The translations under genes and the position numbers were made by a program. From contig SVAX01000004.1 of NCBI GenBank assembly GCA_015059155.1, positions 1 to 58,286 of the forward strand: a stretch of 58,286 nt of DNA, given 5' to 3'. Shown piece by piece: positions 1 to 54,850 of this stretch. The DNA is from Bacillota bacterium. Lineage in GTDB: Bacteria; Bacillota_I; Bacilli_A; RF39; UBA660. Positions within the stretch are counted from its first letter, which is position 1. Each line of letters opens with the position of its first letter. Below the pieces are notes generated by a model. That model was not told the DNA's origin and did not search any database. It saw nothing but the letters and a program-made list of their open reading frames with translations.

Positions 1-81
1 TCAACAGATGATATGTGTAGGCAAAAAGAATATGATATCAATAGTAAAGTTATTTTTGGGTATGGTACTCCTGCTTATTAA
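1..81 (+). CDS. 3' end (partial) of CHAP-domain cell-wall hydrolase typical of conjugation modules
   Basis: Frame 1 reads STDDMCRQKEYDINSKVIFGYGTPAY*; this GYGxPAY end resembles CHAP proteins of Firmicutes ICEs. Confidence 0.6.
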   Translation, partial: STDDMCRQKEYDINSKVIFGYGTPAY

Positions 82-88
82 AATTAAA

Positions 89-119
89 AAGGTTATTTCT
101 TATTTTGAGAAATAACCTT
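89..119 (+). terminator. Inverted-repeat terminator after CHAP gene
   Basis: aaggttatttct-tattttg-agaaataacctt, 12-bp perfect stem. Confidence 0.7.
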
Positions 120-141
120 AATACATATTAAGGAGTTTTAG

Positions 142-179
142 TTGGGAATATAGATTATTTTTTGATTTAATGCTATACT
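142..179 (+). promoter_or_regulatory. SigA-type promoter, copy 1 of a duplicated promoter block
   Basis: TAGATT(151-156)-N17-TATACT(174-179) with extended TG; ttgggaatatagattattttt is repeated at 1038-1058. Confidence 0.6.
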
Positions 180-311
180 TGTTAAAAACAAAATATTAAA
201 ATCTACTAATAGTAGATAGATGATAAAAGTAAAATATCAAACTCTACTATTAGTGGGTGTAAAAATAATAATAAATATAATATATTTTTTGTTGAAAGGA
301 GTTAATAAATT

Positions 312-776
312 ATGAATCAAGAAAAAATAGGAAAGTTTATTGCAAGTTGTAGAAAAAAACAAAAATTAACACAAGAACAACTTGCTGAAAAATTAGGTAT
401 AACTTACAAAGCAGTAAGTAAATGGGAAACAGGAAAAGGTTTACCAGACGCTTCAATAATGATGGATTTATGCAGTATTTTAGAAATAAATGTCAATGAT
501 TTGTTGAGTGGCGAAAAGGTAGTTATAGAACAATATATAGATAAAGCAGATGAAAATTTAATAAAACTTCAAAAACAAAAAGAAATTGGGATTTCCTCTG
601 CTAGATGGACTCATATTACTACAATTATTATTTTTTTAATTTGGAATGCTATAAATGTAATTAAATATGGAATAACACAAGCAATAGATATGCCAGAATT
701 TATTGTTATGAATATTATTACATTAACTTATTTTATAATTTATATATTTCTTTTAAGAAGAATAGAAAGAAAATAG
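312..776 (+). CDS. XRE-family HTH regulator with two C-terminal TM helices
   Basis: LTQEQLAEKLGITYKAVSKWETG HTH; hydrophobic C-terminal segments; RBS aaggag. Confidence 0.9.
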   Translation: MNQEKIGKFIASCRKKQKLTQEQLAEKLGITYKAVSKWETGKGLPDASIMMDLCSILEINVNDLLSGEKVVIEQYIDKADENLIKLQKQKEIGISSARWTHITTIIIFLIWNAINVIKYGITQAIDMPEFIVMNIITLTYFIIYIFLLRRIERK

Positions 777-786
777 GAGGATATTT

Positions 787-996
787 ATGAGAAAATGTTT
801 GAGATGTGAAACTGAAATGGTAGAAGATTTAACTTTAATGGTAGCAAATGGATTTGCTATTGACGTAAGGGAAAAAGGTGCTTTTAAAAATGCGTTAGAA
901 AAAATTAAATGTGCAGTATGCCCTGATTGTGGATATACTGAAACTTACATAGAAAATACAGAAAAAGTAAAAAAGTTAGTTAGAAAAGATAAATAG
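787..996 (+). CDS. Small Zn-ribbon protein
   Basis: CLRC...CPDC motifs; RBS aggagg. Confidence 0.8.
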   Translation: MRKCLRCETEMVEDLTLMVANGFAIDVREKGAFKNALEKIKCAVCPDCGYTETYIENTEKVKKLVRKDK

Positions 997-1006
997 TGAA
1001 ATTTAT

Positions 1007-1037
1007 AAAGCAGATCATAAATGATTTGCTTTTTTTA
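1007..1037 (+). terminator. Intrinsic terminator, copy 1
   Basis: aaagcagatcat-aa-atgatttgc-ttttttt; near-identical copy at 5050-5080. Confidence 0.8.
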
Positions 1038-1075
1038 TTGGGAATATAGATTATTTTTAAGTTTTATGCTATAAT
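1038..1075 (+). promoter_or_regulatory. SigA-type promoter, copy 2
   Basis: TAGATT(1047-1052)-N17-TATAAT(1070-1075), extended TG. Confidence 0.65.
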
Positions 1076-1128
1076 TTTTTTGAAGAATACTGAAAGAAAA
1101 AATAACATTTTATTAGTTGGGAGGAAGT

Positions 1129-1506
1129 ATGAATAAAATAAATATAAGATATGTAAAAAAGACTATAAGTTCTGCTGTTATATCTGGATTACTTGCATAT
1201 TTTCTATTTAAGACAAACGATTTATTATCAAAAATAGTAATTTCATTGTTTTTAGTTTTTGGAATAAGTTTTTGTATTACTAATCTATTATTAGTATTTA
1301 AAAAAAATAAATTAGCAGAAAAAGTTAGTAAAGTATATGTTATAGCATTTTTTATTTATTGGTACGGATTTTTAATATATTGGGACTATGTAAGTATATT
1401 AAATAAAGATTTTATGTCGGTTTTAATTTCATTGATAATGTGGTTTGCAGGAGGATATTTCATTTATAAACGTTTCTTTAAGAAAAAAGAAGAAAATAGG
1501 AGGTGA
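1129..1506 (+). CDS. Small 4-TM membrane protein
   Basis: Four hydrophobic segments; ATG at 1129 after ggagg. Confidence 0.8.
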   Translation: MNKINIRYVKKTISSAVISGLLAYFLFKTNDLLSKIVISLFLVFGISFCITNLLLVFKKNKLAEKVSKVYVIAFFIYWYGFLIYWDYVSILNKDFMSVLISLIMWFAGGYFIYKRFFKKKEENRR

Positions 1507-1510
1507 TGAG

Positions 1511-2161
1511 ATGAAAAAATGGTTAAAAATTACTATCGGAGTTGTTGGTGGAATTGTTGTTTTATTTGCAATAGGTATTTATATATTGATAAATAAAGGT
1601 TATGGAATATCTGTTGGAAGATATTTAGAAGTTAAAGATGGTACTGCAATGCTTGTTCGTGGTAATTCTCCAATAGTATTATCAAGCCAACATAATGGTG
1701 ATATGTTCTATGATTTAGATATTGGTGATAAAATATTAGTTATTCATACAGGAATAGCAGAAAGTTATCCAGCACAAACAGGTGCAAAAGCAATATTTAA
1801 AATTGGAAATGGATCAAGTGCTGATATCCCACAAAAAGTTATTAAAGAATTAAATGAATTAGGTTGGATAGAAACACAAGAAATGCCAATTAGTCTTGAA
1901 GATGTAAATATAAAAATACAAGAATATTTTGAATTAGATAATGTTGATAAAAGTAATTTTAAAAATAGTTATGTAGATAGAGAAAAAGAAGTTGTTGCAG
2001 TGGAATTAATTGATAATAGTAAAGTAAAACAAGATGAATTTATTTATAAGGTATTTTCACATTCTACAGGTTCAAAGTATATCAAATATATTAAAGATAA
2101 TGGTATGCTTGAATTTAGACAAGCAGGTGTATCTGGTAGTGCAAGTTCTTATAACGAATAG
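1511..2161 (+). CDS. Membrane-anchored extracellular protein with DUF3221/YobA-like (ESYPAQ) region plus a second domain
   Basis: ATG 1511 after ggaggtga; N-terminal TM; IAESYPAQ motif. Confidence 0.65.
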   Translation: MKKWLKITIGVVGGIVVLFAIGIYILINKGYGISVGRYLEVKDGTAMLVRGNSPIVLSSQHNGDMFYDLDIGDKILVIHTGIAESYPAQTGAKAIFKIGNGSSADIPQKVIKELNELGWIETQEMPISLEDVNIKIQEYFELDNVDKSNFKNSYVDREKEVVAVELIDNSKVKQDEFIYKVFSHSTGSKYIKYIKDNGMLEFRQAGVSGSASSYNE

Positions 2162-2182
2162 TTGTGAAAGAGAGGTAGTTAT

Positions 2183-3055
2183 ATGAAAAAAAATATAAAG
2201 AAAATTTTAATTATAATTGGTGTAATTATACTCATAATTTTATTAGACTCTATACAAGCATTAGTATTTGATAATAATCCATTATTGAAAATAAGAGAAT
2301 ATTATAATGGAGGAAATCTAAATTATAAAGATAAAGGAATATTAGTAGATACTTATTGTGGAATTAACGGCAAAAAAGATACTGTAATAAAAGGATTTAG
2401 TTATTCTTTATCTGATGAAGATACTTTTGAAATAGTAGATAAAACTAAAAATATGGAAGATTTTGCGTGTGATGATGCGTTAGAAGAAATATATGAAGAT
2501 GAAAATTATATATATTATCTACCTTGTATAAAGAGCAGATATATTGAAGTAAGATATAAATCTTTAAGAAGAGAGAACATAATTAGTGCATTAGCAAATG
2601 GAAATATAAGTATTAGTGATTTAGATAAATTTAGTATTGATTACATTAAAGAAGAAAAAAATCAAGAGGAATTACAATCACCTCCAGAATTATTTGTGTA
2701 TATAGATGAAAATGAAAAAGCAAAAGCAATGCTTGGCACATATAGTTGGAAGATTACAAAAGATGGAAAAGAAGAAGTAATAGCAGCAGATTCTAAACAT
2801 CCAAGCCAAATTAAATATAATGATATAAATACATTAAAATTAACTGATGAAAAAGTAAATATAAAATCTACTAATGCAAGAATTTCTAGTGCTAATATTT
2901 ATAATATAGATAAAACAGAAAGTATTAAAAAAATATCTTGGGATAATAGTACAATAATGTTAGGAAACTTAAATGCAGGAGAATATGTTTTAGAAATAGT
3001 TGCAAGTTATTCACAAGGTAAAGTTTATTACGGTGTAAAACTTGTTGTAGAATAA
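2183..3055 (+). CDS. Membrane-anchored multi-domain extracellular protein, unknown function
   Basis: N-terminal basic + hydrophobic anchor; RBS gaggt. Confidence 0.8.
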   Translation: MKKNIKKILIIIGVIILIILLDSIQALVFDNNPLLKIREYYNGGNLNYKDKGILVDTYCGINGKKDTVIKGFSYSLSDEDTFEIVDKTKNMEDFACDDALEEIYEDENYIYYLPCIKSRYIEVRYKSLRRENIISALANGNISISDLDKFSIDYIKEEKNQEELQSPPELFVYIDENEKAKAMLGTYSWKITKDGKEEVIAADSKHPSQIKYNDINTLKLTDEKVNIKSTNARISSANIYNIDKTESIKKISWDNSTIMLGNLNAGEYVLEIVASYSQGKVYYGVKLVVE

Positions 3056-3073
3056 TTTATAAAGGAGTTAGAA

Positions 3074-3400
3074 ATGAAAAAGTATATTAAGGAATTAGTT
3101 ATATATATATTACAATTATTTATGTTTTATATTTTTCCATTGTTTGCAGGTCCGACTGATGCAATGGGAATGGTGTTGCTAATTATTATATCTACATTTG
3201 TTTTGTCGGTAATTATGGGTAGTATTTCAAAAGAAAAAATTAAATATTTATATCCATTTATAGTGGCTGTTATTTTTATACCAACAGTTATGTTATATTA
3301 TAATTCATCAGCGTTGATTCATTCTATTTGGTATTTAGTTGTATCTGCTATTGGATTATTTATTGGAACTGTTATATATAAATTAACACACAAGAAATAA
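3074..3400 (+). CDS. Small 4-TM membrane protein
   Basis: Hydrophobic throughout; RBS aaggag. Confidence 0.8.
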   Translation: MKKYIKELVIYILQLFMFYIFPLFAGPTDAMGMVLLIIISTFVLSVIMGSISKEKIKYLYPFIVAVIFIPTVMLYYNSSALIHSIWYLVVSAIGLFIGTVIYKLTHKK

Positions 3401-3414
3401 TGATGGAGGTAGTT

Positions 3415-4095
3415 ATGAAAAACAAGAAAATTATAATAAGTGTTGTAGTAGTAATTTTGCTAATAATTGCTGGTTGGTTTTTATCAACAGGTGGTGCAAG
3501 AACGGATGTATTTTTAAGAGATTTTAGTTTTGATGAGAAGTGTAATCAAATGACTATTAAAGTTGGAGTTTCTAGTAGTGCAGGATATGTAAGAAAAATG
3601 AAACAAACAAGTGGAAGTATGAATGGTTATTATACCTTTTATTCAACATTTGGTATCAATTCAAGATTAGGTGCAGAAGATACTTTTGAAATACAACTAG
3701 ATAATAATGTAGATGAAATATTTTTCTATACAGGTGGAAAAGGATATACAAAAGTATTAGAAAAAAATGAAAAAGGAGTATGGGTTAAAGTAAACGATAA
3801 ATCTGGTGGATATCAATTAGTTTCTACTTTAAAAAAAGTTCAACACGTTTCAACAGAAATTTTAGTTCAATTTGATGGAGTATTATATGGAAAATCAAAT
3901 GCAATAATAGATTATGCAGGTGGAACAGAAAAAATAGGAGTAATAGATAAAGTTATTGATAGCAACTATGTTCCTAAATTTGATAATGAAACAAACAGGG
4001 AAGAAATAAAAAATGCAGAAGTATATGATAAAACTGATAAAAGTATAGTTTTGTTATATAACAATGAATATGTATTATTTGAAAAGATTTATTAA
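3415..4095 (+). CDS. Membrane-anchored two-domain extracellular protein, unknown function
   Basis: ATG 3415 after ggagg; N-terminal TM. Confidence 0.8.
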   Translation: MKNKKIIISVVVVILLIIAGWFLSTGGARTDVFLRDFSFDEKCNQMTIKVGVSSSAGYVRKMKQTSGSMNGYYTFYSTFGINSRLGAEDTFEIQLDNNVDEIFFYTGGKGYTKVLEKNEKGVWVKVNDKSGGYQLVSTLKKVQHVSTEILVQFDGVLYGKSNAIIDYAGGTEKIGVIDKVIDSNYVPKFDNETNREEIKNAEVYDKTDKSIVLLYNNEYVLFEKIY

Positions 4096-4165
4096 ACTCT
4101 ACGGTTCGTTTGGTGTATTTTTATAATTTTTATATTATAATTTATTTACGAAAGGGGAGATATGT

Positions 4166-5035
4166 ATGAATCAAGAAAAAATAGGAAGATTTATAGCAGA
4201 ACTTCGTAAAGAAAAAGAGATGACTCAAATTGATTTGGGAAACAAATTAGGTATTACTGATAGAGCAATTTCAAAATGGGAAAATGGCAGAGGAATGCCA
4301 GACTTATCATTATTAACACCATTATGTGAAATATTAGATGTTTCAATAAATGAATTATTAAGTGGTGCAAGATTAGATAAGAAAGATTATCAAGAAAAAT
4401 TGGAGGAAAATATTATAAATACGATAGATTATACAGATAAAAAGATTAAGAAAACTAAAAAGATTTTTATTATTACTATATCAGTAATTTTAATGTTTAT
4501 AGTAATGCTTATGGTAATGTATGGTATTGATATAAACAGAATGAGAAATAATAAACCTGTTTTATTTAGCACTTGGGGTTATTCGTATGTGCCTCCTATT
4601 GATTTGAAAGAAGAAGAAATAGAACTTGCAATAATGGATTATCTAATTGAAAAAGGCGATAGTGAGCCTAAACATCACGAAAACGAAAAAACATTTGCTA
4701 GTATGAGAGTGTATTTAATTGAGGAAAAAGAGAGAGATAAACATTATAATATATATGCTTGGGTATTAAAAGAAAAACATTATTTAGAAAATGATGAAAT
4801 AAAACAAGATAGTGGCTCATCAATACCATATAAGTTTGTTGTAAAAAACATAGATGATAAATTTACTGTGACTGATTCAAGAATACCGAGAGATGGAAGT
4901 TATTATTCTGTTGATATGAAAAATATATTTCCAAGTAGTGTAAGAAATGATATGGATGATGTTCATACAGACGGAACAATAGAAAGATTAGAATTGGATA
5001 TTGAACAACAAACAAAATTATATTTTCATAAATAA
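4166..5035 (+). CDS. XRE HTH + TM + extracellular domain (membrane-tethered regulator)
   Basis: MTQIDLGNKLGITDRAISKWENGRG HTH; TM at ~aa 100-120; soluble C-terminus. Confidence 0.9.
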   Translation: MNQEKIGRFIAELRKEKEMTQIDLGNKLGITDRAISKWENGRGMPDLSLLTPLCEILDVSINELLSGARLDKKDYQEKLEENIINTIDYTDKKIKKTKKIFIITISVILMFIVMLMVMYGIDINRMRNNKPVLFSTWGYSYVPPIDLKEEEIELAIMDYLIEKGDSEPKHHENEKTFASMRVYLIEEKERDKHYNIYAWVLKEKHYLENDEIKQDSGSSIPYKFVVKNIDDKFTVTDSRIPRDGSYYSVDMKNIFPSSVRNDMDDVHTDGTIERLELDIEQQTKLYFHK

Positions 5036-5049
5036 TTATTATAAATGTA

Positions 5050-5080
5050 AAAGCGGATCATAAATGATTTGCTTTTTTTA
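5050..5080 (+). terminator. Intrinsic terminator, copy 2
   Basis: aaagcggatcataaatgatttgcttttttta, one mismatch to 1007-1037. Confidence 0.8.
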
Positions 5081-5198
5081 TGGTATAATATGTATAAATT
5101 TAATTTTGCAACCAACTTTCAACAAAAAACAACCTAAAAGTGGTGGTCTGCTACCGGTAGAAAATTATAAAATATAAGCGAAAAGGAGGTAGAAGAAA

Positions 5199-6755
5199 AT
5201 GAATAATAAGTTTTCTGAAAATTTAAAAAAGATTAGAAAAGATAATAATCTTTCACAAGAACAACTTGCTGATGAACTTGGGGTTTCAAGACAAGCAATT
5301 TCAAAATGGGAATCAGCAGTTGCATATCCAGAGATGGATAAAATTATTACTTTATGTGAAAAATTCAATTTGAATATAGATGATTTATTACATAAAGATA
5401 TTAGAGAAGTAAAGGGGGAAGAAGAAAGTAAAAAGAACTTAAATAAATATGTAGATGACTTTTTAAATTTTATTACAAACACTATAAATATGTTTAGTAA
5501 TATGAGTTTTAAAAGTAAATGTAAATGTTTATTTGAACAAATTGTTATAGGAACAGTATTATTAGTAGTTTGTTTGATTATTGGAACATTAGGACAAGAT
5601 TTACTATCCGGAATATTTGGAGTTATACCAGATAAATTATATTATATATTACACTCAATACTTCATTTAGTATATGGAATATTCGCTATTATGAGTTCGG
5701 TTATCATAATGGTACATATATATAAAACGAGATATTTAGATTATTATGAAAAAATAAAAAAAGAAGTTGTAGAACAGGATGAAAAAAATGAAGATGATAA
5801 GATTTTAGATAATTCAGATAAAGATGAAAAAATAGATAAAAAGAATAAGATACTATTTAAAAAGAACGAAGATAAAATTATTATAAGAGATCCAAAACAT
5901 AGTGAATATAAGTTCATAAATGGATTATTTAAAGTTATAGTAGGAATTATTAAGTTCTTTACATTATGTTTTTCAATAATATTATTTGTGACTTTAATAT
6001 GTTTGTTTATTGCATTTATAATTTCATTTTTAACAATTAAAACAGGTATATTTTTTATAGGCTTATTAGTAGCAATATTGTCTGCTGCAATTATAAATGT
6101 AGTATTGATATTACTTCTATTAAATTTTGTATTTAATAGAAAAAATGATAAAAAGAAAATGATATGGTCGTTTGTTATATCACTTATAATGATAGGAATT
6201 GGTAGTGGTTTAGTTTTAGTAGGTTCATTAAACTTTGAATATATTGAAAATGATAAAGATATTTTAAAAACAGAATATATAGAAGTTGATATGAAAAATG
6301 ATTTAGTATTTGGCTACCATTATCCAGAAGTAGAATATATTGAGTCTAATAATGATAATATTAAAATTGAATATACAATAAATAAATATTGTGAGATAAA
6401 TCATTCAAGTTTATCAGATAAAGTAATACATATATGGGCAAGTTGTGATAATCCCATAAAATTAGTAAAAGAAGTAATAAGTAATTTTAATGATAAAAAA
6501 ATTGTTTCAATAAATAATCAACTTCAAGATGTTAAGATATATACTACAAAGGAAAATATTGAAATATTAAAGAAAAACTATAAAGATTATACAGATATTG
6601 AAGTTCAGACACAAAATACAATTAACTCTTACGAAAATAGAATAAATGAATTACAAGAAAAAATTGATGAGTATATTCAAAAAGAGTGGGAATATCAAGA
6701 AGAAATTAACAATTTAAAAGACCAAATTGTTATGTATCAAAACGATAATGAATAA
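5199..6755 (+). CDS. XRE HTH + multi-TM + extracellular/coiled-coil protein
   Basis: LSQEQLADELGVSRQAISKWES HTH; ~5 TM helices; heptad-like C-terminus. Confidence 0.9.
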   Translation: MNNKFSENLKKIRKDNNLSQEQLADELGVSRQAISKWESAVAYPEMDKIITLCEKFNLNIDDLLHKDIREVKGEEESKKNLNKYVDDFLNFITNTINMFSNMSFKSKCKCLFEQIVIGTVLLVVCLIIGTLGQDLLSGIFGVIPDKLYYILHSILHLVYGIFAIMSSVIIMVHIYKTRYLDYYEKIKKEVVEQDEKNEDDKILDNSDKDEKIDKKNKILFKKNEDKIIIRDPKHSEYKFINGLFKVIVGIIKFFTLCFSIILFVTLICLFIAFIISFLTIKTGIFFIGLLVAILSAAIINVVLILLLLNFVFNRKNDKKKMIWSFVISLIMIGIGSGLVLVGSLNFEYIENDKDILKTEYIEVDMKNDLVFGYHYPEVEYIESNNDNIKIEYTINKYCEINHSSLSDKVIHIWASCDNPIKLVKEVISNFNDKKIVSINNQLQDVKIYTTKENIEILKKNYKDYTDIEVQTQNTINSYENRINELQEKIDEYIQKEWEYQEEINNLKDQIVMYQNDNE

Positions 6756-6757
6756 AA

Positions 6758-6795
6758 AAGATTAAAGACTATTCGTGTGAATAGTCTTTAATCTT
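6758..6795. terminator. Bidirectional terminator between convergent genes
   Basis: 17-bp perfect inverted repeat aagattaaagactattc-gtgt-gaatagtctttaatctt. Confidence 0.8.
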
Positions 6796-7027
6796 CTAGT
6801 TTATTTGCGTCAAACAATTTTGAATCATAAAACTCTGACAGAGTAATTTTGAATGTTCTACATACTTTATGTATTATGTATGAACTAGGATTATCTACTT
6901 TGTTCGCCAATAATGCTCTTAAAGTTGATGGGGCGATAGCAGATAATTCAGCAAGTCTGTTAGGGGTGTAATCGTATTTATTACATAATTCAAAAATGCG
7001 TTGACTTAATGCTTCTTTAAATAACAT
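6788..7027 (-). CDS. Small XRE/Cro-like HTH repressor
   Basis: TPNRLAELSAIAPSTLRAL...NPS...IHKVC...ITLSEFY pattern; RBS aggaggtgg. Confidence 0.85.
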   Translation of the reverse strand: MLFKEALSQRIFELCNKYDYTPNRLAELSAIAPSTLRALLANKVDNPSSYIIHKVCRTFKITLSEFYDSKLFDANKLED

Positions 7028-7062
7028 AGAATAAACCCACCTCCTACAATCATTAAAATTGT

Positions 7063-7126
7063 AGCAGATATCTGCTGATTTTATGCGCCGATATCGGTTG
7101 ACTTTTAGTTTTAAGGGTGTTATAAT
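7063..7126 (+). promoter_or_regulatory. SigA promoter with two upstream GATATC-core palindromic operators
   Basis: agcagatatctgct (7063-7076) and ccgatatcgg (7088-7097) abutting TTGACT(7098)-N17-TATAAT(7121). Confidence 0.7.
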
Positions 7127-7219
7127 ATAAATTGTCTATTAAGCAGTACATTTTAGATATTGGTGTACTGTCTTTTTTTTGAAATACAACTTGGGGAAAT
7201 AGATTATAAAGGAGGAGTA

Positions 7220-7744
7220 ATGATAACAATTACTAATGGCGTAGAAGAAATTTCTATAAAAGAGAATATGACAAAGAAAACAAAAAAGGGGATTATTATT
7301 AGTCCGTGCAGAGATTATTGGTACATTGAATTATTTACAGAAGTTAAGAAAGGAAAATATACTAGAATAATAAAAAAACTACCACCAGAGAGTGGTGATG
7401 AATTAAAGAGTTATTATAATCTTGATATTTACTCGGAAAAAGGAATTGTTTTATCAAATAATGATTTTGCAGAAGTTAAAAGACTTTATGAAAATATGCA
7501 AGTTGTAGATATAAAAAGAAAAGAATCAATAATTTTAGCAGCAGCAACATTATTTGCGTATGAATGTTATCAAAACTATTATTTAGAAGAATTATATAAA
7601 GTTCCTAGTGAAGAAATGTTTGAAGAAATTGTTGTTGCTTTACAACAATATAAAGAACTTGCAACTTATAAAGATGAAATATATGCTGTGACTAAAAAGA
7701 TATTAAAAGAAAAATATGAATTAGAAAATTTATTAAAAGATTAA
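7220..7744 (+). CDS. Hypothetical protein
   Basis: ATG 7220 after ggagga; open to 7744. Confidence 0.75.
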   Translation: MITITNGVEEISIKENMTKKTKKGIIISPCRDYWYIELFTEVKKGKYTRIIKKLPPESGDELKSYYNLDIYSEKGIVLSNNDFAEVKRLYENMQVVDIKRKESIILAAATLFAYECYQNYYLEELYKVPSEEMFEEIVVALQQYKELATYKDEIYAVTKKILKEKYELENLLKD

Positions 7745-7758
7745 GGAGTGGAATAAAA

Positions 7759-8418
7759 ATGGAATTTGTAGTAGTGGGATTAGTTGTATTTATTATAATT
7801 TGTTTTTGTTATATATCAGAATATGGTGAAAAGACCAAAACTAAAATTGAAGAATTAAACAAAGAAATAGAAAGATTAAATAAAGAAGTTAAATTAAGAG
7901 ATATCTACAAGAGAGAATTAGAAAGAATAGAATTTGATAAAGAGATTAAAAGTGTTGGAATTGAAAATATGACTATAAGTAAAGAACATAAATATAAAGT
8001 TGTTGGTAAGAAAATACCTAAAATTCTAATAGGCGATTATAATCCTTCTTCTGTAAGAAATACTTGTGGAGTTTTAATGAGAATGGGATTTGATGTAGAT
8101 GTTGTAGAAACTGCCGAAGATGTAATAGAAAAAGTAAAAAGTTTTATGCACTACGATCTAATTATCTCAAACAACGAATACTATGGAAGTAAGCATAAGT
8201 CTAAAATTACTAGCAGTCATCAATTATTAGATGGTTTAAAAGAAATAGAAGATTTTGATACACCTGTAATTGTATTAACAGTATCCAATGATAGAGAAAA
8301 GTTTTTATCTTATGGATTTAATGAACATATCCAAAAAGTTTTAGATGAAGAAAAAGTAATGCAAGTTTTCCCAAAAGTATTAAAAAAATTAAAGTTTGAA
8401 ACAATAGAAAAGCAATAA
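7759..8418 (+). CDS. TM + coiled coil + degenerate receiver (CheY-like) domain protein
   Basis: KILIGD...GFDVDVVETAEDVIEKV...YDLIISN...TPVIVLT...GFNEHIQK receiver pattern. Confidence 0.75.
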   Translation: MEFVVVGLVVFIIICFCYISEYGEKTKTKIEELNKEIERLNKEVKLRDIYKRELERIEFDKEIKSVGIENMTISKEHKYKVVGKKIPKILIGDYNPSSVRNTCGVLMRMGFDVDVVETAEDVIEKVKSFMHYDLIISNNEYYGSKHKSKITSSHQLLDGLKEIEDFDTPVIVLTVSNDREKFLSYGFNEHIQKVLDEEKVMQVFPKVLKKLKFETIEKQ

Positions 8419-8428
8419 GTCATAAGAT

Positions 8429-8869
8429 TTATTGCTTTTTTCTACCTAATAATGAGTCAATAGAGAATGGTTTATATATTCTTGTTAAATTATACAAGAA
8501 TGTAGTAGGTATCAAATTAACTGCATTTTCATAATGAGCATAAGATGCTTGTGTAGTGTTTATTTTACTTGCTACATCTTCTTGCGTTAATTTATGTTGT
8601 TTTCTTAAAAGTTTTAAGTTCTTTGCAATTATATCTAAATTTATTTCTAATGGTAGATAATTTGAATCGTTGTATCGTGTAATACCAAATAAATAATCTA
8701 AACTATAATTGAAGTGATTAGCATATTCAATTAACCTTTTTAGTGGGATAGTATCTTTCCCTGTTTCCCAACCAGAAACAGTAGTAAAATTAACTGATAA
8801 TAATTCTGCGACATCTTTTTGTTTAATATCTAAAATTTCCCTACTTTCTCTTAAATTTTTAATAATCAT
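8429..8869 (-). CDS. Tandem double-HTH XRE repressor
   Basis: Two HTH repeats (IKQKDVAELL..VSGWETG; LTQEDVASKI..YAHYEN); start at 8869 after ggtga. Confidence 0.9.
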   Translation of the reverse strand: MIIKNLRESREILDIKQKDVAELLSVNFTTVSGWETGKDTIPLKRLIEYANHFNYSLDYLFGITRYNDSNYLPLEINLDIIAKNLKLLRKQHKLTQEDVASKINTTQASYAHYENAVNLIPTTFLYNLTRIYKPFSIDSLLGRKKQ

Positions 8870-9116
8870 TTTAGTTTCACCCAATAATATTATTCCATTA
8901 ACTTGGGCTATTATTATTTTTCTAGGGGAAATAGACTATTTTTTTAAAAATTTGTTAATTATATGAAAAAAAAGTGACATTTTTTTATTTTTTTTGCACT
9001 TCTGCCAAATTCTGACAATTTTCGCAAAAAAAGTGTCGTATAATGGGCTTGACAATGCCAAATATAAATAGAAAGAGTAAGTGATTAAAATTAAATAAAA
9101 AATTATAGAAATGATT

Positions 9117-9163
9117 AAGCAGTAAATTTTCTATGAAATATAGTTAGTTTACTGCTTTTTTTT
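9117..9163 (+). terminator. Terminator-like hairpin in leader of sigma-like gene
   Basis: aagcagtaaa...tttactgctt followed by T tract. Confidence 0.65.
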
Positions 9164-9310
9164 AGAATAATGAGATAAGTACAATTTTTAAGTAGTATTT
9201 ATTTGTACTAATGATATCCAAGATAGGCATTGATCTTTGAGTAAGGATATGCCTATGATTGTGAAAAAATACTACCCAAAAGGAATTGTAAAATTAAATA
9301 AAATAAATAG

Positions 9311-9360
9311 AAAAGCCGGATGTAATCCTTTATTTGTTAGGGATACATTCGGCTTTTTTT
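9311..9360 (+). terminator. Second terminator-like hairpin in leader of sigma-like gene
   Basis: aaaagccggatgta-atcct...ggga-tacattcggcttttttt. Confidence 0.7.
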
Positions 9361-9453
9361 GTTGCGTAAATAGTACGGGTCTATATAGGTGTAGAAGTCC
9401 ACCAACTATCAATTTTGAATTTAAAAATTTGAAATTGATAGGAGGAAAGAAAA

Positions 9454-9930
9454 ATGGCAGAACGCCCAAAAAGAAGAAAACATAAGGATAATCCTTATAC
9501 ATTAGAATTTATAGAAGAAAAAAATAGTTATAGAGTAAGTTTTAAAGATGTAAAAGGTAAGTTTCGCAGAGTAGATGTTAATAAAGAAATATATCAAGCA
9601 TTTGATAGATTTGAATTAGATGATTTATCAGAATTAAATGAGTTTGATAATCATATAGAACATTCAGAAGTATATGAAAATAATCTTAATGAAAGAGCAA
9701 TGGACAAGCCATTAGGTGTTGATGAAATTGTTGAAACAATGTTAATTAACGAAGAATTAAAGAAAGCAATAAATCAGTTATCAGAAGTTCAAAAACGAAG
9801 AATTAAGATGTATTACTTTGAAGATATGACATTAGAAGATATTGCGAGAGTAGAGAAAACATCACACCAAGCAATTAGTAAAAGTATTATAAAAGCACTT
9901 GCTGAATTAAGAAAAATATTAAAAAAATAA
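9454..9930 (+). CDS. Sigma-70 region 4 domain activator of ICE type (Tn916 Orf7-like role)
   Basis: RPKRRKHKDNPY N-terminus; LSEVQKRRIKMYYFEDMTLEDIARVEKTSHQAISKSI region-4 HTH. Confidence 0.85.
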   Translation: MAERPKRRKHKDNPYTLEFIEEKNSYRVSFKDVKGKFRRVDVNKEIYQAFDRFELDDLSELNEFDNHIEHSEVYENNLNERAMDKPLGVDEIVETMLINEELKKAINQLSEVQKRRIKMYYFEDMTLEDIARVEKTSHQAISKSIIKALAELRKILKK

Positions 9931-9970
9931 AAAAATTTAAAAATTCGGGTTGCAAAAATGCGCTTTAGTT

Positions 9971-10047
9971 AGGAAACAGGTGAGAGGGTAAGTTATTCCC
10001 TTTTGCCTGTTTCTTCTTTTTGGAAGAACAGGGGTGTTCTTTGAAAA
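9971..10047 (+). promoter_or_regulatory. Overlapping alternative hairpins plus boxA-like site
   Basis: 18-bp stem 9971-10015 whose only non-WC pairs are G-U; overlapping stems 10006-10032 and 10024-10041; tgttctttgaaaa at 10035-10047. Confidence 0.55.
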
Positions 10048-10054
10048 TTTGATA

Positions 10055-10330
10055 TTCATTCATCAGATACGTTCCTATTGTAATCTGAAAGGTAAAGCAC
10101 GTTAGCAAGTACGCTTGTCGGTTAATGCTTGGCTATAAAATTAGGTGGCACCTAATCTGCGATAACATACAATAGGGTTAAAGATACTCCTGTCCAGCCA
10201 CAGACTCAAGCAATGGGGGCAGTCTTGTGAGAACCACAAGAGAGTGAAATTCTCGTGGAATTGATTAGCCGTCAATCGTTTGATGACTTCCCCGTGTTGT
10301 GGGGTTTCGAGGAGAAATAGCAACACATTA
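10055..10330 (+). ncRNA. Candidate large structured RNA, family unassigned
   Basis: Markedly GC-richer than flanks, no convincing ORF, many nested stems including long-range 10060-67/10279-86 and 10074-82/10168-76. Confidence 0.65.
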
Positions 10331-10470
10331 AACATATTTAGATAAAGTCAGAATCAGTATGCAAAAAAAGGAAAACGGATCTCGTTTTTTCTCAATAGGG
10401 CAAGTGATTTTGGCTTAATACATTGCACACTTATTTGGTGTTCTTTTTTTATGAAAAGGAGGAAGTTAAT

Positions 10471-10839
10471 TTGGAAATATTAAGAGGTAATTTGTATTAC
10501 GCAGATTTAGAGCCTGTAATAGGGAGTGAACAAGGTGGAATAAGACCTGTTTTAGTAATACAGAACAATATAGCAAATACATATAGTCCTACTGTTATTA
10601 TTGCACCTACAACTAGCAAAGTAGATAAAAAGCCTAACTTGCCAACACACGTTGAGGTGAAAGCATTTCAAGGATTAAAATACGATTCAATTATTTTATT
10701 AGAACAAATAAGAGTAATTGATAAGCAAAGATTAAAATCATATTTAGGAAGATTAGCAATTAAGGATATGGAGTTAATTGATATAGGAATTATCCATACA
10801 TTTGGATTAAAAGTTAAATTGGAGGATAGAAAGATATGA
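10471..10839 (+). CDS. mazF: PemK/MazF family endoribonuclease toxin
   Basis: RGNLYYADLEPVIGSEQGGIRPVLVIQN...LEQIRVIDKQRL; TTG start after aaggagg. Confidence 0.9.
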   Translation: MEILRGNLYYADLEPVIGSEQGGIRPVLVIQNNIANTYSPTVIIAPTTSKVDKKPNLPTHVEVKAFQGLKYDSIILLEQIRVIDKQRLKSYLGRLAIKDMELIDIGIIHTFGLKVKLEDRKI

Positions 10840-11057
10840 AAAAATATTTAGTTTATGTGACGAGAAGCAAAGTAAACGAGTTTGAAGTAGAGGCTAATAA
10901 TAGTAATGAGGCAGAAGAAACAGTAAGAGAATTATTAAATAAATCAACTATTTTAGACTGCAAAATAGTTAATTTAGTACCAACTGAAATAAAAATTAGT
11001 TCAAAGCGAATGAAAAAAGAAAGAAACAAATGCAAAGTCATTAAGTTTCATTTTTAA
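10836..11057 (+). CDS. Small DpnD/PcfM-like protein
   Basis: MKKYLVYVT...FEVEANNSNEAEETV pattern. Confidence 0.55.
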   Translation: MKKYLVYVTRSKVNEFEVEANNSNEAEETVRELLNKSTILDCKIVNLVPTEIKISSKRMKKERNKCKVIKFHF

Positions 11058-11069
11058 TGGTGATATAAG

Positions 11070-11348
11070 ATGATGAACAATAATTTAGCAGTAATAGTAA
11101 GAACTGCAAGAGAAAAAATAAAAATATCACAGAGAGAATTATCAAGAAGATCCGGAGTAGATAATAATACTATTTCAAAAATAGAAAAAGGTATTAGAAA
11201 AAAGCCGGGTGTTATATCTCTTATTAAATTAAGTGATGTTTTAGATATAGATATTAGTAAATTGCTAAAAGCAAGTGGATATTCAAAAAATGAAATACAA
11301 GTCTTTTTTATGGGAGGTGCTTATGTCGTTTTTCAAAAAGAAAAATAA
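11070..11348 (+). CDS. XRE HTH protein
   Basis: ISQRELSRRSGVDNNTISKIEKG. Confidence 0.85.
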   Translation: MMNNNLAVIVRTAREKIKISQRELSRRSGVDNNTISKIEKGIRKKPGVISLIKLSDVLDIDISKLLKASGYSKNEIQVFFMGGAYVVFQKEK

Positions 11349-11526
11349 AACTTACTATGTCACATTGATTACAAAAGATAAGAAAGAATCAATGTATGTC
11401 ACAGGTAAGAGTAAAAAAGAAGTTAAGGAAATGGTTAGTAGTGTTGTTATAAATTGCAGTTTATTTCCTTTTAGGTCAAAAGAAGATTTTAAATTAAAAG
11501 TCAAGTCTGCGAATTTTAAAAAATAG
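11323..11526 (+). CDS. Small hypothetical protein, possibly distant paralog of 10836..11057
   Basis: ATG 11323 after ggaggtg; similar length and YxV...V..K/N...E..E.V pattern. Confidence 0.65.
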   Translation: MSFFKKKNKTYYVTLITKDKKESMYVTGKSKKEVKEMVSSVVINCSLFPFRSKEDFKLKVKSANFKK

Positions 11527-11555
11527 ATAAAATCGCACAATGGAAAGAAATGATA

Positions 11556-11597
11556 AGAACTTGTATCCTTATAGCGTGAGGTGCAAGTTCTATTTTT
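11556..11597 (+). terminator. Terminator-like hairpin directly before excisionase RBS
   Basis: agaacttgta-t-cctta-tagcg-tgagg-tgcaagttct-attttt. Confidence 0.6.
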
Positions 11598-11620
11598 ATG
11601 AAAAGGAGGAAAGTAGAATT

Positions 11621-11824
11621 ATGCACGAGCAAGTTATAAAAAAGGTTTATGACGTTAGTGATATACAAAAAATATTAGGATTAGGAAGAACAAAGGCTTA
11701 TGAGTTTTTAGAAGAAGTGTATTACAAAAAGAAACCTTTTGCAGTTATAAAAATTGGTAAACTCTACAAAGTTCCAAAAGAGCCTTTTGATTTATGGGTA
11801 AATGGAGGAATGCAGAATGATTAA
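11621..11824 (+). CDS. xis: Excisionase (HTH_17-type)
   Basis: YDVSDIQKILGLGRTKAYE...IKIGKLYKVPKEPFDLW; directly upstream of integrases. Confidence 0.85.
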   Translation: MHEQVIKKVYDVSDIQKILGLGRTKAYEFLEEVYYKKKPFAVIKIGKLYKVPKEPFDLWVNGGMQND

Positions 11825-11850: not shown

Positions 11851-13059
11851 ATGAGAAAAATGAAAACAGAAGTTGCTGAATATAAAGGAACTATTGCATT
11901 CTTTTATAGGAATTCTTGGTATCACAGAAAGAAAGAATTATTAGAAGATGGTAGTACAAAATATGGAAGATTAGGTGGATTTAAAACACCAGAAGAAGCC
12001 GAAGAAAGTTATAAAAAATGTTTAGAAGAATATGAAAATCAAAGAAGAAACTATATTGTACCTAACATAGATAAAGAAATTTTATTAAGAGATTATTTAA
12101 TTTATTGGTATGAGAATATTCATTCAAAATCTCAAAGAATTGAAAGTACAACTAAAATGGTGACTTGTTATACAATATACAACTTAATTCTTCCTAATCT
12201 TCCTTATGATATAAAGGTAAGATTAACAACAAGTGATTATATAAATGAAACATTAGATAAAATAGATAAGTTAGGTAAAACAACTGCTAATAGAAGTAGA
12301 GAAACATTTAATTGGGCTTTAAAAGAGGCTATAAAAGATAGTGTTATTACAGTTAATCCTGTTGATAGTACAAAGTTTTTTAAAAGAGGAAAAACAAATA
12401 TAAAATTATTATCACAAAAAGAAATAAAAACTTTATTATCAGCAAGTTGTAAAGATAATTGGTATTTAGAAATATTGCTAGCCTTATTCTGTGGATTAAG
12501 AAAAGGCGAAATACGAGGATTAAAGTTTAGTGATTTTAATGAAGAAAAAAAGACAGTTAAAATACAAAGACAGTTAGGAAATCAATATGAATTAAAAGCA
12601 AATGAATTTAAAGTTGAAAAAATATCTTGTATTGAAAAAGACCCTAAAACTGATAATAGTTTTAGAACTTTAAGAGTTCCTAAAATTATATGGGAAGAAT
12701 TAGCAAAGAGAAAGAAATTGATAGAATATCAAAAATTAGTTAATAGTGATCTATATGAAGATAATGATTATATAAGTTGTCAGTCTAATGGTAAACCACA
12801 TAGTAGTACATCAATGAATGCTTATTTAAAAAAAGTATGTATGAAAAATGGACTTCCAGAAATAACAGTTCACGGATTAAGACATTTATATGCAACTATA
12901 CTTATAGAACAAGGTGTAGCATTAGCAAAAATATCTGCATTATTAGGTCATAGTTCAATTCATACAACATTTGATTTTTATTGTGATGTATTAAATGAAA
13001 AAGCAAAGATAACTGCATTTGTTAATAATACTTTTGCAGTAGAAGAAACGGAGGGATAG
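11851..13059 (+). CDS. int: Tyrosine integrase A
   Basis: GFKTPEEA arm-binding region; GLRKGE, HGLRH, LGHSS...FY catalytic motifs. Confidence 0.95.
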   Translation: MRKMKTEVAEYKGTIAFFYRNSWYHRKKELLEDGSTKYGRLGGFKTPEEAEESYKKCLEEYENQRRNYIVPNIDKEILLRDYLIYWYENIHSKSQRIESTTKMVTCYTIYNLILPNLPYDIKVRLTTSDYINETLDKIDKLGKTTANRSRETFNWALKEAIKDSVITVNPVDSTKFFKRGKTNIKLLSQKEIKTLLSASCKDNWYLEILLALFCGLRKGEIRGLKFSDFNEEKKTVKIQRQLGNQYELKANEFKVEKISCIEKDPKTDNSFRTLRVPKIIWEELAKRKKLIEYQKLVNSDLYEDNDYISCQSNGKPHSSTSMNAYLKKVCMKNGLPEITVHGLRHLYATILIEQGVALAKISALLGHSSIHTTFDFYCDVLNEKAKITAFVNNTFAVEETEG

Positions 13060-13061
13060 AT

Positions 13062-14372
13062 ATGGATTTAGAGTTAATAATTGAACAAAGACAATATATT
13101 GATTTCAAAGTTTATTCTGTCACTCCTATAAAGAAAAAATATGGATTTAGAATAATATTGATATATGAAAATGGCGAAGAAAAGCCAATGCAAAAATCTG
13201 GATATGCCACAAAAAAAGAGGCTAATAATGCTAGAAATATTGCAATAACAGAACTGCATAATGGAACATTCGTAGTTAATTGCAATGTAAATGTAAAACA
13301 ATTTTTTACTTATTGGCTTGAAAAAGTTATGCGACCTAGTATATTAACATCAGATTCTTATGACGCTTATAAAAATATAGTTTATAATCATATAATACCT
13401 AGTTTAGGAACATTAAAAATGACTACATTAAGTAGAGGTCATATACAAAAGTTTTATAATGAGAAAACACAATATTCTCATAATGTAGCAAAATTGTGTA
13501 AGGCAGTTATGAATACAGCATTAAAATATGCGTTAGAAAAGAAATTAGTAAAGTTTAATGCAGCATTAGATATAGAACTACCAAAATGTGTGAAAAAAAA
13601 GAAATATAGAACAATAGAAATAGATACAAAAAAGACTTTAAATGAAGAACAAGTTAGATTATTGATAGAAAAAAGCAAAGATACTCCCATTCATTTGCAA
13701 GTATTATTTGCAGTCTTAATGGGATTAAGGAAACAAGAAATAAATGGATTAAAATATAGTGATATTGATTATATACACCGTACTTTAAAAGTTCAAAGAC
13801 AATTAGGTAAAAAACCTAATACTGACAATTCAGAATTAAAAGTAGGTGAATATACAAAGCAAGAAATAGAAGTTAAAACATTTTCTAGTAATAGAGAACT
13901 TGAAATACCAGACATAGTATTTGAGGCAATATTAGAAGAAAGAAAAAAATATGAAAGAAATAGAAGTAGAAGAATAAATGATAAGACAACACCATTTAAA
14001 GATTATGATTTTATTTGTTGTTCTACCTATGGGAATCCAAGAAGTAAGAGTTTTCATTTTAAATATTGGAAAGCATTATTAAAAGATAATAATCTACCAA
14101 ATATAAGATTTCACGATTTAAGAGCAACATATTGTACTTTACTTATTAAAAATAATTTTAATTTAAAGGCAATATCTAAACAAATGGGACACGCAACAGA
14201 AATAATATCAGTTGATGTATATGGTGATAATGAAGAAATAATATCTGATTGTTTAGATGAGTTAGAGCCATTTATTGATATGGTGAAACCAGAAGAAGAA
14301 ATAGAGGAATATGGGGACGAATTACTAATAGATATTGATGAAGAATATATAAATGCACTTGCAGTATTTTAA
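13062..14372 (+). CDS. int: Tyrosine integrase B
   Basis: GYATKKEA arm-binding region; GLRKQE, HDLR, MGHA...VY catalytic motifs. Confidence 0.95.
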   Translation: MDLELIIEQRQYIDFKVYSVTPIKKKYGFRIILIYENGEEKPMQKSGYATKKEANNARNIAITELHNGTFVVNCNVNVKQFFTYWLEKVMRPSILTSDSYDAYKNIVYNHIIPSLGTLKMTTLSRGHIQKFYNEKTQYSHNVAKLCKAVMNTALKYALEKKLVKFNAALDIELPKCVKKKKYRTIEIDTKKTLNEEQVRLLIEKSKDTPIHLQVLFAVLMGLRKQEINGLKYSDIDYIHRTLKVQRQLGKKPNTDNSELKVGEYTKQEIEVKTFSSNRELEIPDIVFEAILEERKKYERNRSRRINDKTTPFKDYDFICCSTYGNPRSKSFHFKYWKALLKDNNLPNIRFHDLRATYCTLLIKNNFNLKAISKQMGHATEIISVDVYGDNEEIISDCLDELEPFIDMVKPEEEIEEYGDELLIDIDEEYINALAVF

Positions 14373-14391: not shown

Positions 14392-14427
14392 AAAAACAAG
14401 GTAAAATTTTCAGTTTCCTTGTTTTTT
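14392..14427 (+). terminator. Terminator after integrases
   Basis: aaaaacaagg...ccttgtttttt. Confidence 0.65.
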
Positions 14428-14496
14428 AAGGGAAAAAATGATAAAATTATACAGTGAAAACGACTTTTAGTAATGTTTAATATCATTTAGTGTTAT

Positions 14497-41311: not shown

Positions 41312-42508
41312 CTATCTTTTTATTTTTTTATATATTTTTAAAAGTATAGGATAGAATGTTTTTATAGGGTAATAAATCCATGAAACTGGTAAATCATATT
41401 CTCCTGTGAATTCCATAACTCTACCATTAAATTTTTGTTTAAATATAGTTAAATGATCATTAAGATTTCCATTAACGCCCCCTAAGTTACAATAGTGACA
41501 ATTGTTTTCTATAGAAAATTTAATCATTTCAAATACTAATCCTGCAGATATATTTAATTTACTAAACAAAGAACTATTACCTGCATATAAATATTCGCTA
41601 GTTCTAATACCTTTTTTATTTTTAGGAAGTAATAAAAGACCAGTAGAAACAGTTAAGATATTACCATTTTCTTTTATTAAATTTCTAACTTCTTCAATCT
41701 CTCCTTCCTTACCATTGTTTTCTTTTAAAAATTCTAAATATTTTTTTAAATCTATATTTCCAAAAAAAATGTAGGATCTATCTATAAAATTATTTAATAT
41801 TTTTACAAAGTATTCTTTGTTCCTTAAACTTATATTTTGCTTTTTTTCTGTTATCCTAAGCAATTCTACAAATTTATCTAATTTAGTTATGTCATTTGTT
41901 ATTTCAAAATATATTCCTCTTTTTTCATGGAAATTACCCAAATAATATTTAAATTTACTTTTATATGTTTTAAGTACCTCGTCTACTGTTAAAATTTTAG
42001 AATTGATATCACATATAGGGGCCATAACATTATATTGTGGTTGTAAATTTTTACCCATTTCTTTATTCATACCAGTATGTTTATATCCTAATTTAATAAG
42101 ATTATTATGTTTAATTTCGTAATTTTTTGAGTAGTTATGTTCCACTTCTTCATCTTTAAAACTGTTATCACTCTTACAAAAGTTAGGATCTATTTTAACT
42201 ACATAAGCATTGTTTTCCTTAGCTAATGCTTTAATATTTTTAGTCATAATTTCTAAATCATTAATATTAGTAAAATCTATTAAATATCCCCTAGGAATAT
42301 AAAACAATTTAATATTTTTAAAAACTTTCTTTACTAAGATCATACAAACAGCTACTAATTTTTTATCTTTATATAGACCACAGTGAAAATTATTCCAATT
42401 GTCTTTAATATTAGCCCATTCATATTCTTGCATAAAACTAGCCATAGAATAATTCTCAACAAACTTATCGTATTCTTTTTTATCTAAATTACTTGTAAAT
42501 GTATACAT
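41312..42508 (-). CDS. FemABX/MurM family peptidyl transferase (peptidoglycan bridge)
   Basis: SFMQ..EW...K, YIPRG, KIDP, YLYAG, NLGG, FK..F. Confidence 0.9.
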   Translation of the reverse strand: MYTFTSNLDKKEYDKFVENYSMASFMQEYEWANIKDNWNNFHCGLYKDKKLVAVCMILVKKVFKNIKLFYIPRGYLIDFTNINDLEIMTKNIKALAKENNAYVVKIDPNFCKSDNSFKDEEVEHNYSKNYEIKHNNLIKLGYKHTGMNKEMGKNLQPQYNVMAPICDINSKILTVDEVLKTYKSKFKYYLGNFHEKRGIYFEITNDITKLDKFVELLRITEKKQNISLRNKEYFVKILNNFIDRSYIFFGNIDLKKYLEFLKENNGKEGEIEEVRNLIKENGNILTVSTGLLLLPKNKKGIRTSEYLYAGNSSLFSKLNISAGLVFEMIKFSIENNCHYCNLGGVNGNLNDHLTIFKQKFNGRVMEFTGEYDLPVSWIYYPIKTFYPILLKIYKKIKR

Positions 42509-54717: not shown

Positions 54718-54729
54718 TTTGTATGTGTG

Positions 54730-54835
54730 ACGTGCGAAGATGTGTGAGGTTGCTGATACACCAGGTTAAGTTGTTATACAAAATAATCTGAAAATCAGGT
54801 TTTTACACGGAGCAAGTCTATACTGGATATAGACG
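54730..54835 (+). promoter_or_regulatory. S10 operon structured leader
   Basis: gatgtgtgaggttgctgatacacc...cacggagcaagtc resembles Firmicutes rpsJ leaders. Confidence 0.55.
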
Positions 54836-54850
54836 AAGGGAGGATACAAG

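Follow-up and report, generated by a model that had tools for sequence, protein, structure and literature searches.

We analysed a structured RNA encoded in a stretch of 58,286 nucleotides (nt) from a Bacillota bacterium (lineage Bacteria; Bacillota_I; Bacilli_A; RF39; UBA660), namely positions 1 to 58,286 of contig SVAX01000004.1 in assembly GCA_015059155.1, which is called the window here. The RNA lies on the plus strand in the non-coding gap 9931-10473, which separates a sigma-70 region 4 gene from a gene of the PemK/MazF toxin family and holds no plus-strand open reading frame (ORF) of at least 40 amino acids (aa). It is a real structured RNA of a known family, the pemK motif, and has the architecture of canT, an antiterminator of Tn916. 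The features of the locus are as follows.

9454-9930 (+): sigma-70 region 4 gene, 158-aa product (Pfam Sigma70_r4, E = 1.5e-07)
9972-10022 (+): terminator-like 17-bp hairpin with U-run after the sigma gene (-26.8 kcal/mol, z = -4.3, 0/200 shuffles as good)
10035-10047 (+): boxA-like TGTTCTTTGAAAA, exact site
10059-10287 (+): structured RNA core (RNAalifold consensus and pair counts; 244.5 bits with the covariance model R1, see below)
10178-10258 (+): match to Rfam family RF02913, comprising helices P5-P7 (see below) and a conserved 5' tail (54.1 bits)
10290-10326 (+): 3' module, a candidate H-type pseudoknot in which S1 (CCCC/GGGG, 10290-93/10301-04) is interleaved with S2 (GTGTTG/CAACAC, 10294-99/10321-26)
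10474-10839 (+): PemK/MazF-family toxin gene (Pfam PemK_toxin, E = 1.3e-31)
10836-11057 (+): gene for a 73-aa protein, its start overlapping the pemK stop (alignment A4; positions in homologous loci)
11556-11600 (+): terminator-like hairpin with U-run just 5' of the xis ribosome-binding site (-18.5 kcal/mol, z = -4.0, 0/200 shuffles as good)
11622-11824 (+): excisionase-like gene (xis), probable start 11622 inside ORF 11540-11824 (ribosome-binding site and ATG in the sequence)
11851-13059 and 13062-14372 (+): two tandem tyrosine recombinase genes (Pfam Phage_integrase, E = 2.6e-21 and 9.1e-17)
14392-14433 (+): terminator-like hairpin with U-run between the second integrase gene and uvrB (-11.5 kcal/mol, z = -2.7)

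Downstream of pemK, the order is the 73-aa ORF, an HTH_3 protein, a second small ORF, the excisionase-like HTH_17 protein (E = 0.0013, under the cut-off of that Pfam family), the two recombinases and uvrB. Terminator-like hairpins thus stand within this operon (11556-11600) and at its end (14392-14433), and a weak one is found 3' of the RNA at 10376-10397. The original prediction, made from the sequence without database searches, had been of a structured non-coding RNA that heads the pemK-xis-int genes on the plus strand, and this proposal stands.

We then compared the region with the Rfam models. As a result, RF02913 (pemK RNA) matched 10178-10258 on the plus strand over all 61 model positions with 54.1 bits, against a gathering score of 34.8, so that the earlier statement that the RNA could not be assigned to a named family was corrected by the very scan that had been suggested with it. 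All of the hallmarks of the family are present, namely the three-hairpin junction, the AUAAUGAUACU tail, the GAGAACC loop and GGUGAAAUUCC; the match spans the hairpins at 10223-41 and 10240-54 together with a first hairpin that has a long loop. It is the one RF02913 copy in the genome of the window, and no other Rfam family matched 9850-10550 at E values up to 10. Rfam classes the motif as Cis-reg and states no function; its source is Weinberg et al. 2017, whose main text, as far as available, does not mention it.

To obtain homologues, a DNA search in 61 relatives recovered sequences covering most of 10055-10330 in 5 other genomes at 72-99% identity, and DNA similarity searches gave no phage match and one partial plasmid match. 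A sequence pattern from the 5' part, applied to one genome per species, collected 67 loci, mostly from uncultured gut Bacilli by their record titles, of which 57 distinct full-length copies were aligned (alignment A2). The columns at about 10097-10128 were fixed by the search pattern, and invariance there is uninformative. RNAalifold folded A2 into nine helices, all on the plus strand.

10059-68/10278-87: P1, closing helix; 8/10 pairs changed on both sides
10075-81/10169-75: P2, long-range helix; 6/7 pairs changed on both sides
10097-99/10158-60: three-pair helix in the RNAalifold consensus
10103-11/10126-35: P3; flanking pairs GC 32 / AU 23 and CG 33 / UA 21
10140-45/10151-56: P4 hairpin; 6/6 pairs changed on both sides
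10190-95/10217-22: P5; 5/6 pairs covary
10223-29/10235-41: P6 hairpin; 6/6 pairs changed on both sides
10242-44/10252-54: P7, GAG-GUGAAAU-CUC hairpin; 3/3 pairs changed on both sides
10260-64/10272-76: P8 hairpin; 5/5 pairs changed on both sides

Indeed, 98.0% of the cells in A2 can pair, and compensatory changes occur in 42 of the 55 pairs, a number reached by none of 500 shuffles (mean 28.0 two-sided pairs) and by none of the controls with slid partners (14-21). In 18 distant members with G+C contents of 31-59%, including Tn916 and a copy from a 59% GC Subdoligranulum, 93.4% of the cells pair and 52/55 pairs covary, in an alignment that was fitted to the model and hence favours the structure. 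The consensus energy is better on the plus strand than on the minus strand (-39.3 versus -29.7 kcal/mol) and G-U pairs are frequent on the plus strand (for example UG in 44/55 rows at pair 22/260), which together identify the plus strand as the folded one. Since folding of the single sequence 10055-10330 was no better than that of shuffles (z = -0.51 on the plus and -0.68 on the minus strand), the evidence for structure is comparative, not thermodynamic.

Much of the earlier manual fold survives in this consensus. The closing helix tcatcaga/tttgatga and the hairpins at 10140-56, 10223-41, 10240-54 (gaga-gtgaaat-tctc) and 10261-75 reappear as P1, P4, P6, P7 and P8, while the perfect 9-bp long-range helix was retained in part: seven of its nine pairs are conserved, and six of those covary. 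Three proposed helices fared worse. The UACG-capped hairpin at 10105-18 can form in 98% of the cells, within columns fixed by the search pattern, and shows covariation in 0/5 pairs; the flanking bases have their covarying partners on a distal strand instead, giving P3. The hairpin at 10190-203 pairs poorly (76.5% of the cells), and the pseudoknot tggct/agcca (10130-34/10196-200) is paired in 83.6%, with one pair mismatched in 21 sequences. Taken jointly, these three helices have 3 covarying pairs versus 2.5 in shuffles, and 256/500 shuffles reach the observed value. The proposed 3' stem (10294-99/10321-26) was upheld as S2 of the 3' module, whose two interleaved stems come with a purine-rich loop UUUCGAGGAGAAAUAG. 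In 34 distinct homologues, among them the 59% GC Subdoligranulum copy, the sequences of S1 and S2 differ but both stems stay complementary, with GCC/GGC, CCG/CGG and CCUG/CAGG among the S1 alternatives in relatives; this comparison was made with our own script and by inspection, not by a formal test.

The Rfam model is only the 3' core, P5-P7, of a larger fold of about 230 nt (10059-10287) closed by P1. We built R1, a whole-fold covariance model of 238 positions, from the family of the window. Among 151 sampled genomes of the phylum, 12 carried RF02913 matches, 20 in all. R1, scored in 149 of the genomes, matched at full length 13 times in 9 of them, and 13 of the 20 RF02913 matches coincided with R1 matches. 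With the filters off, six of the other seven RF02913 matches were also full-length R1 matches (E from 1e-9 to 6e-4), and the remaining one, itself below the Rfam cut-off, gave E = 0.1 with R1. Thus, 19 of the 20 matches form part of a fold that measures about 230-360 nt and includes the 5' domain and the closing helix.

The same model also matches Tn916. Wirachman and Grossman (2024, PMC11658703) located canT between orf8 and xis of this element and, in the text available, report that it is required for conjugation and is cis-acting, processive and active in one orientation only, that it functions with foreign promoters, as in a chromosomal reporter, and with heterologous terminators including arrays of three, and that canT given in trans did not complement. 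The authors state that its sequence and structure were not pursued, and the available text mentions neither Rfam nor pemK nor boxA. We made the comparison on the Tn916-type element (Tn916/Tn925) of plasmid pCF10, in which R1 matched 41790-42071 on the minus strand, between orf8 and xis, over all 238 positions (75.6 bits, E = 8.8e-16), and RF02913 matched 41822-41922 on the same strand with 55.0 bits. The constructs of that paper map onto the matches as follows.

nt 126-577 after the orf8 stop (pCF10 42079-41628): active 452-bp fragment, containing the whole R1 match
nt 229-390 after the orf8 stop (pCF10 41976-41815): 162-bp deletion, covering the whole pemK motif
nt 283 after the orf8 stop (pCF10 41922-41920): canT(S3), ATA to TGC; the site reads ATA, the first three bases of the motif and the start of AUAAUGAUACU

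Judged by these positions, the R1 match in Tn916/Tn925 is the published antiterminator canT. The gene order agrees as well, with the sigma gene (9454-9930), the RNA, the xis-like gene (11622-11824) and the integrase genes (11851-14372) following one another on one strand of the window. The 158-aa sigma protein shares 24% identity over 58 aa with the Tn916-type Orf7 of pCF10 (BLASTP, E = 2e-05) and is, on this similarity, the counterpart of Orf7/Sig7. The system that had been put forward as undescribed is not new in this respect, a sigma-region-4 gene followed by the RNA, xis and int being the regulatory and recombination module of Tn916. No paper equating the pemK motif with canT or Tn916 was found in a search that had subscription journals and supplements, including the motif description of Weinberg et al., outside its range.

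We also looked for the RNA in metatranscriptome data, where four runs from two studies yielded contigs that differ from the window by 0-2 positions.

Study P2, run X2: contig 9991-10322, depth 152
Study P2, run X7: contig 9991-10326, depth 37
Study P3, run X3: contig 9992-10366, depth 15
Study P3, run X5: contig 10006-10346, depth 28

In the four runs, the sigma gene had a depth of 0 and pemK one of 0-6. Such contigs cannot give ends, strand or level, and uncovered parts are not evidence of absence. Since carried-over DNA would cover the flanks too, the region, with the S1/S2 module inside the contigs, exists as RNA and greatly exceeds its neighbours in abundance or stability.

The neighbourhoods of the homologues were then examined. 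Of 55 loci with 700 nt or more of upstream sequence, 52 have a sigma-region-4 homologue directly 5' of the RNA, and pemK, the commonest first downstream gene, follows in 30/56; the RNA is thus associated with the sigma gene, not with the toxin. Among the 26 loci without pemK, for which 39 of the 46 first downstream ORFs were scanned (those omitted being three in L026, one each in L033 and L058, and two small ones in L064), xis and/or a tyrosine integrase was found in 3, a large serine recombinase in 8 and a large Gp10_C-domain protein in 11. Loci L051 and L061 have the sigma gene, the RNA, xis, two integrases and uvrB as in the window, without pemK, and the integrase pair next to uvrB in all three suggests a site-specific element inserted upstream of uvrB. 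Two distinct tyrosine recombinases are kept as a tandem pair in the window (11851-14372) and in L051, L053 and L061. In L063 (182-7963), and also in L038, the sigma-region-4 gene and the RNA come directly after murG-ftsQ-ftsA-ftsZ and are followed by a 613-aa Gp10_C-domain protein; no recombinase was seen in the 8 kb of L063.

The RNA is probably a canT-class cis-acting processive antiterminator that heads the pemK-xis-int operon. This function had been the one favoured by the original prediction, and it is supported by homology to canT rather than by an assay; antitermination activity in the window element and direct contact with the polymerase are inferred. The RNA core (10059-10287), the boxA-like site (10035-47) and the 3' module (10290-10326) would together make up the canT-class RNA, which would be made as the leader of a transcript extending into pemK, xis and both integrase genes. 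This leader would fold into a multi-helix junction closed by P1 and remain with the polymerase that made it, that is, act in cis, and this polymerase would then ignore later intrinsic terminators such as those at 11556-11600 before xis and 14392-14433 after int. After excision, terminators across the joined ends of the element would be passed too.

Several observations weigh against this assignment. The function is deduced from homology to a single tested RNA, canT. In a 400-bp fragment, the S3 mutation of canT reportedly had little effect, and the authors regard the link between structure and activity as complicated (PMC11658703, text available in part). In the 3 kb downstream of 54 loci, a crude script found 47 terminator-like sites on the operon strand versus 57 on the opposite one, that is, no excess. 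The RNA-library contigs end before pemK, and their depth exceeds that of the pemK pieces about 30-fold, a pattern that a stable RNA, short, terminated or processed, could also produce. Furthermore, no conjugation genes were found in the window, where positions 1-9400 were scanned and the contig starts at base 1, and no Sig8 homologue was seen; the genome, which is 70% complete, had 0 matches to Rep_trans and Relaxase, and its AAA_10 matches were weak and lay elsewhere.

The RNA could instead be a local regulatory leader, for which one may think of a ligand- or protein-sensing attenuator or an element for stability or translation that acts non-processively on the next terminator or gene. In its favour, the contigs end at 10322-10366, a terminator-like hairpin follows the RNA by about 20-70 nt in 11 homologous loci, with the weak one at 10376-10397 in the window, and Rfam places the family in its Cis-reg class. 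However, the Tn916 homologue has no terminator directly after the RNA and suppresses unrelated downstream terminators as well as arrays of three (PMC11658703, text available in part), and the very varied downstream genes argue against a single sensed metabolite. We therefore regard a local leader as unlikely. Another alternative is a stable RNA acting in trans, such as an RNA antitoxin that neutralises the adjacent PemK/MazF toxin, which had been offered as an alternative for the orphan MazF. The discrete deep contig in the RNA libraries would suit such an RNA, pemK is the commonest downstream gene, and no antitoxin gene precedes pemK in the window. Nevertheless, 26/56 loci and Tn916 carry the RNA without pemK, the tandem repeats of type III antitoxin RNAs are absent from 9946-10500, and canT did not complement in trans (PMC11658703, in the available text). 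Moreover, a 60-70-aa ORF lies immediately upstream of pemK, in the position of an antitoxin gene, in 28/31 pemK loci; the window has no such ORF there, but a member of its family (10836-11057) overlaps the pemK stop. A trans-acting RNA, an RNA antitoxin included, seems very improbable to us. As regards that small-protein family, the ORFs 10836-11057 and 11323-11526 encode paralogous proteins that have no Pfam match and belong to the family of the pemK-upstream ORF; they are candidate antitoxins, which would place the toxin first here. A predicted complex of two PemK copies with the 73-aa protein scored 0.00, made without controls and informative neither way.

Covariation alone cannot separate RNA from single-stranded DNA (Weinberg et al. 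2017, in the part of the main text available), and the locus lies within a mobile element, so that the fold could in principle act as a single-strand origin or recombination site. Against this, the region appears in RNA libraries and its flanks do not, plus-strand G-U pairs are frequent, and canT is active in a chromosomal reporter under a foreign promoter, in one orientation only (PMC11658703, from the available text); we give a role as single-stranded DNA hardly any credence. Two more specific candidates were rejected: a ToxI-like type III toxin-antitoxin RNA, given the lack of tandem repeats in 9946-10500 and a linkage to the toxin that is not constant (30/56), and a group II intron domain, an origin raised earlier, given that no Rfam group II model matched 9850-10550 at E up to 10.

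Returning to processive antitermination as the preferred function, we examined the sequences that precede the RNA. A boxA had been noted upstream, and a boxA-like TGTTCTTTGAAAA is indeed located at 10035-10047. The 13-mer recurs within one mismatch in 47/57 family members and 13/19 distant members versus 26/2000 control windows, and both rRNA operons of a complete relative (G047) carry an identical copy in the spacer between their 16S and 23S genes, in the rRNA orientation. Among the five exact sites in five complete relatives, two fall within rRNA spacers and a third precedes a canT-like RNA, with two left unexplained; two exact 13-mers of genome G050 (L116, L118) lie away from rRNA genes and any RNA-model match. 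The 12-mer is single in the genome of the window, which makes a comparison with its own rRNA leader impossible. NusB-NusE bind boxA RNA. As for the role proposed for this site, the motif proved to be real and to be conserved. However, the published 452-bp fragment with canT activity begins at pCF10 position 42079, inside the boxA (42085-42073), and lacks the first 6 of its 13 bases, so that, by our own mapping, a full boxA appears dispensable in the canT reporter.

Further upstream, the arms of the hairpin at 9972-10022 covary (alignment A1), and its 5' arm holds AGGTGAGAGGG (9978-9988), the most conserved upstream motif of the family. RNA-library contigs of both studies start within the loop of this hairpin, at 9991/9992. 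In the window, AGGTGAGAGGG is preceded at a distance of about 20 nt by GTTGC (9951-9992); GTTGC, about 20 nt and AGGTGTAGAAG likewise precede the sigma gene (9362-9400), and GTGAAAGG lies upstream of sig7 in Tn916. The shared two-part motif may mark promoters of a type that the sigma factor of the element itself recognises. The core motif was found upstream of the sigma gene in 22/53 loci and upstream of the RNA in 44/53, versus 162/1060 control windows, and the bipartite motif in 9/53 and 14/53 loci versus 11/1060; the regular expressions were written after the data had been seen, and the shared motif is a lead only.

These elements could form one portable transcription cassette, composed of the sigma gene, a promoter in its terminator hairpin, boxA and the canT/pemK-class RNA, an idea that we put forward tentatively and with considerable doubt. 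Transcripts through the sigma gene would stop at the 9972-10022 hairpin, and those starting inside it, with 5' ends near 9991, would be unable to form it. With boxA and the RNA on board, the latter would recruit Nus factors of the host and so become resistant to terminators. Such a cassette might be used beyond conjugative transposons, namely in serine-recombinase elements and in chromosomal operons of very large Gp10_C-domain surface proteins, for example next to ftsZ in L063.

Other observations concern the rest of the window. A 25-nt direct repeat (10440-10464 / 11587-11611, 96% identical) consists of a U-run and a ribosome-binding site and precedes the pemK and xis starts. The upstream 9 kb (312-8884) encodes five Cro/C1-type helix-turn-helix (HTH) proteins, several with long membrane-like tails, and contains duplicated segments of 48-64 nt, such as 311-374 and 4165-4228; it has neither transfer genes nor genes for phage structural proteins. 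An Rfam S10-Clostridia ribosomal protein leader at 54729-54836 is barely over its cut-off (36.7 versus 35.1 bits). The HTH genes are listed below.

312-776, 4166-5035 and 5199-6755: Cro/C1-type HTH genes
6788-7027 (-) and 8429-8884 (-): Cro/C1-type HTH genes

For the window alone, the result is annotation rather than discovery. For canT, recognising it as the widespread pemK motif with a 5' domain and a closing helix provides a covariation-backed secondary structure and hundreds of natural variants usable for the design of mutants, and, conversely, an Rfam family with no assigned function gains a suggested one through the link. The same RNA is found in small-genome gut bacteria, in elements with tyrosine or serine recombinases and beside genes of large surface proteins.

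Finally, we compared the RNA with known systems. RNA-only or bipartite processive antiterminators include HK022 put, EAR of Bacillus subtilis and ConAn1/conAn2 of pLS20, as named in the available text of PMC11658703. Like these, it would be a cis-acting RNA early in a long operon that makes the polymerase terminator-resistant; its fold is different, much larger than put, and matches no second Rfam family in 9850-10550. A 13-mer identical to that of rRNA spacers before the RNA, and a hairpin upstream of boxA, recall rrn leaders and lambda nut sites, which have no counterpart of the structured domain. With RF02913 it shares a full-length match over the cut-off, the position upstream of pemK and a low-GC Gram-positive genome, and it adds the 5' domain and the closing helix to that three-hairpin model of 61 positions. 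The sequences of canT and of the window RNA are only distantly alike, P3 of Tn916 has a 39-nt insertion, and Tn916 lacks both the S1/S2 module and the pemK cargo, whereas the window has two integrases and no orf8/Sig8 gene, and transfer genes and a far-end insulator terminator, unlike in Tn916, were not found for its element. Antitermination activity has been measured for canT of Tn916 only. In spite of these differences, both RNAs come after a sigma-region-4 gene and before xis and int, share the P1-P8 architecture and the Rfam core, and have the boxA-like 13-mer directly upstream.

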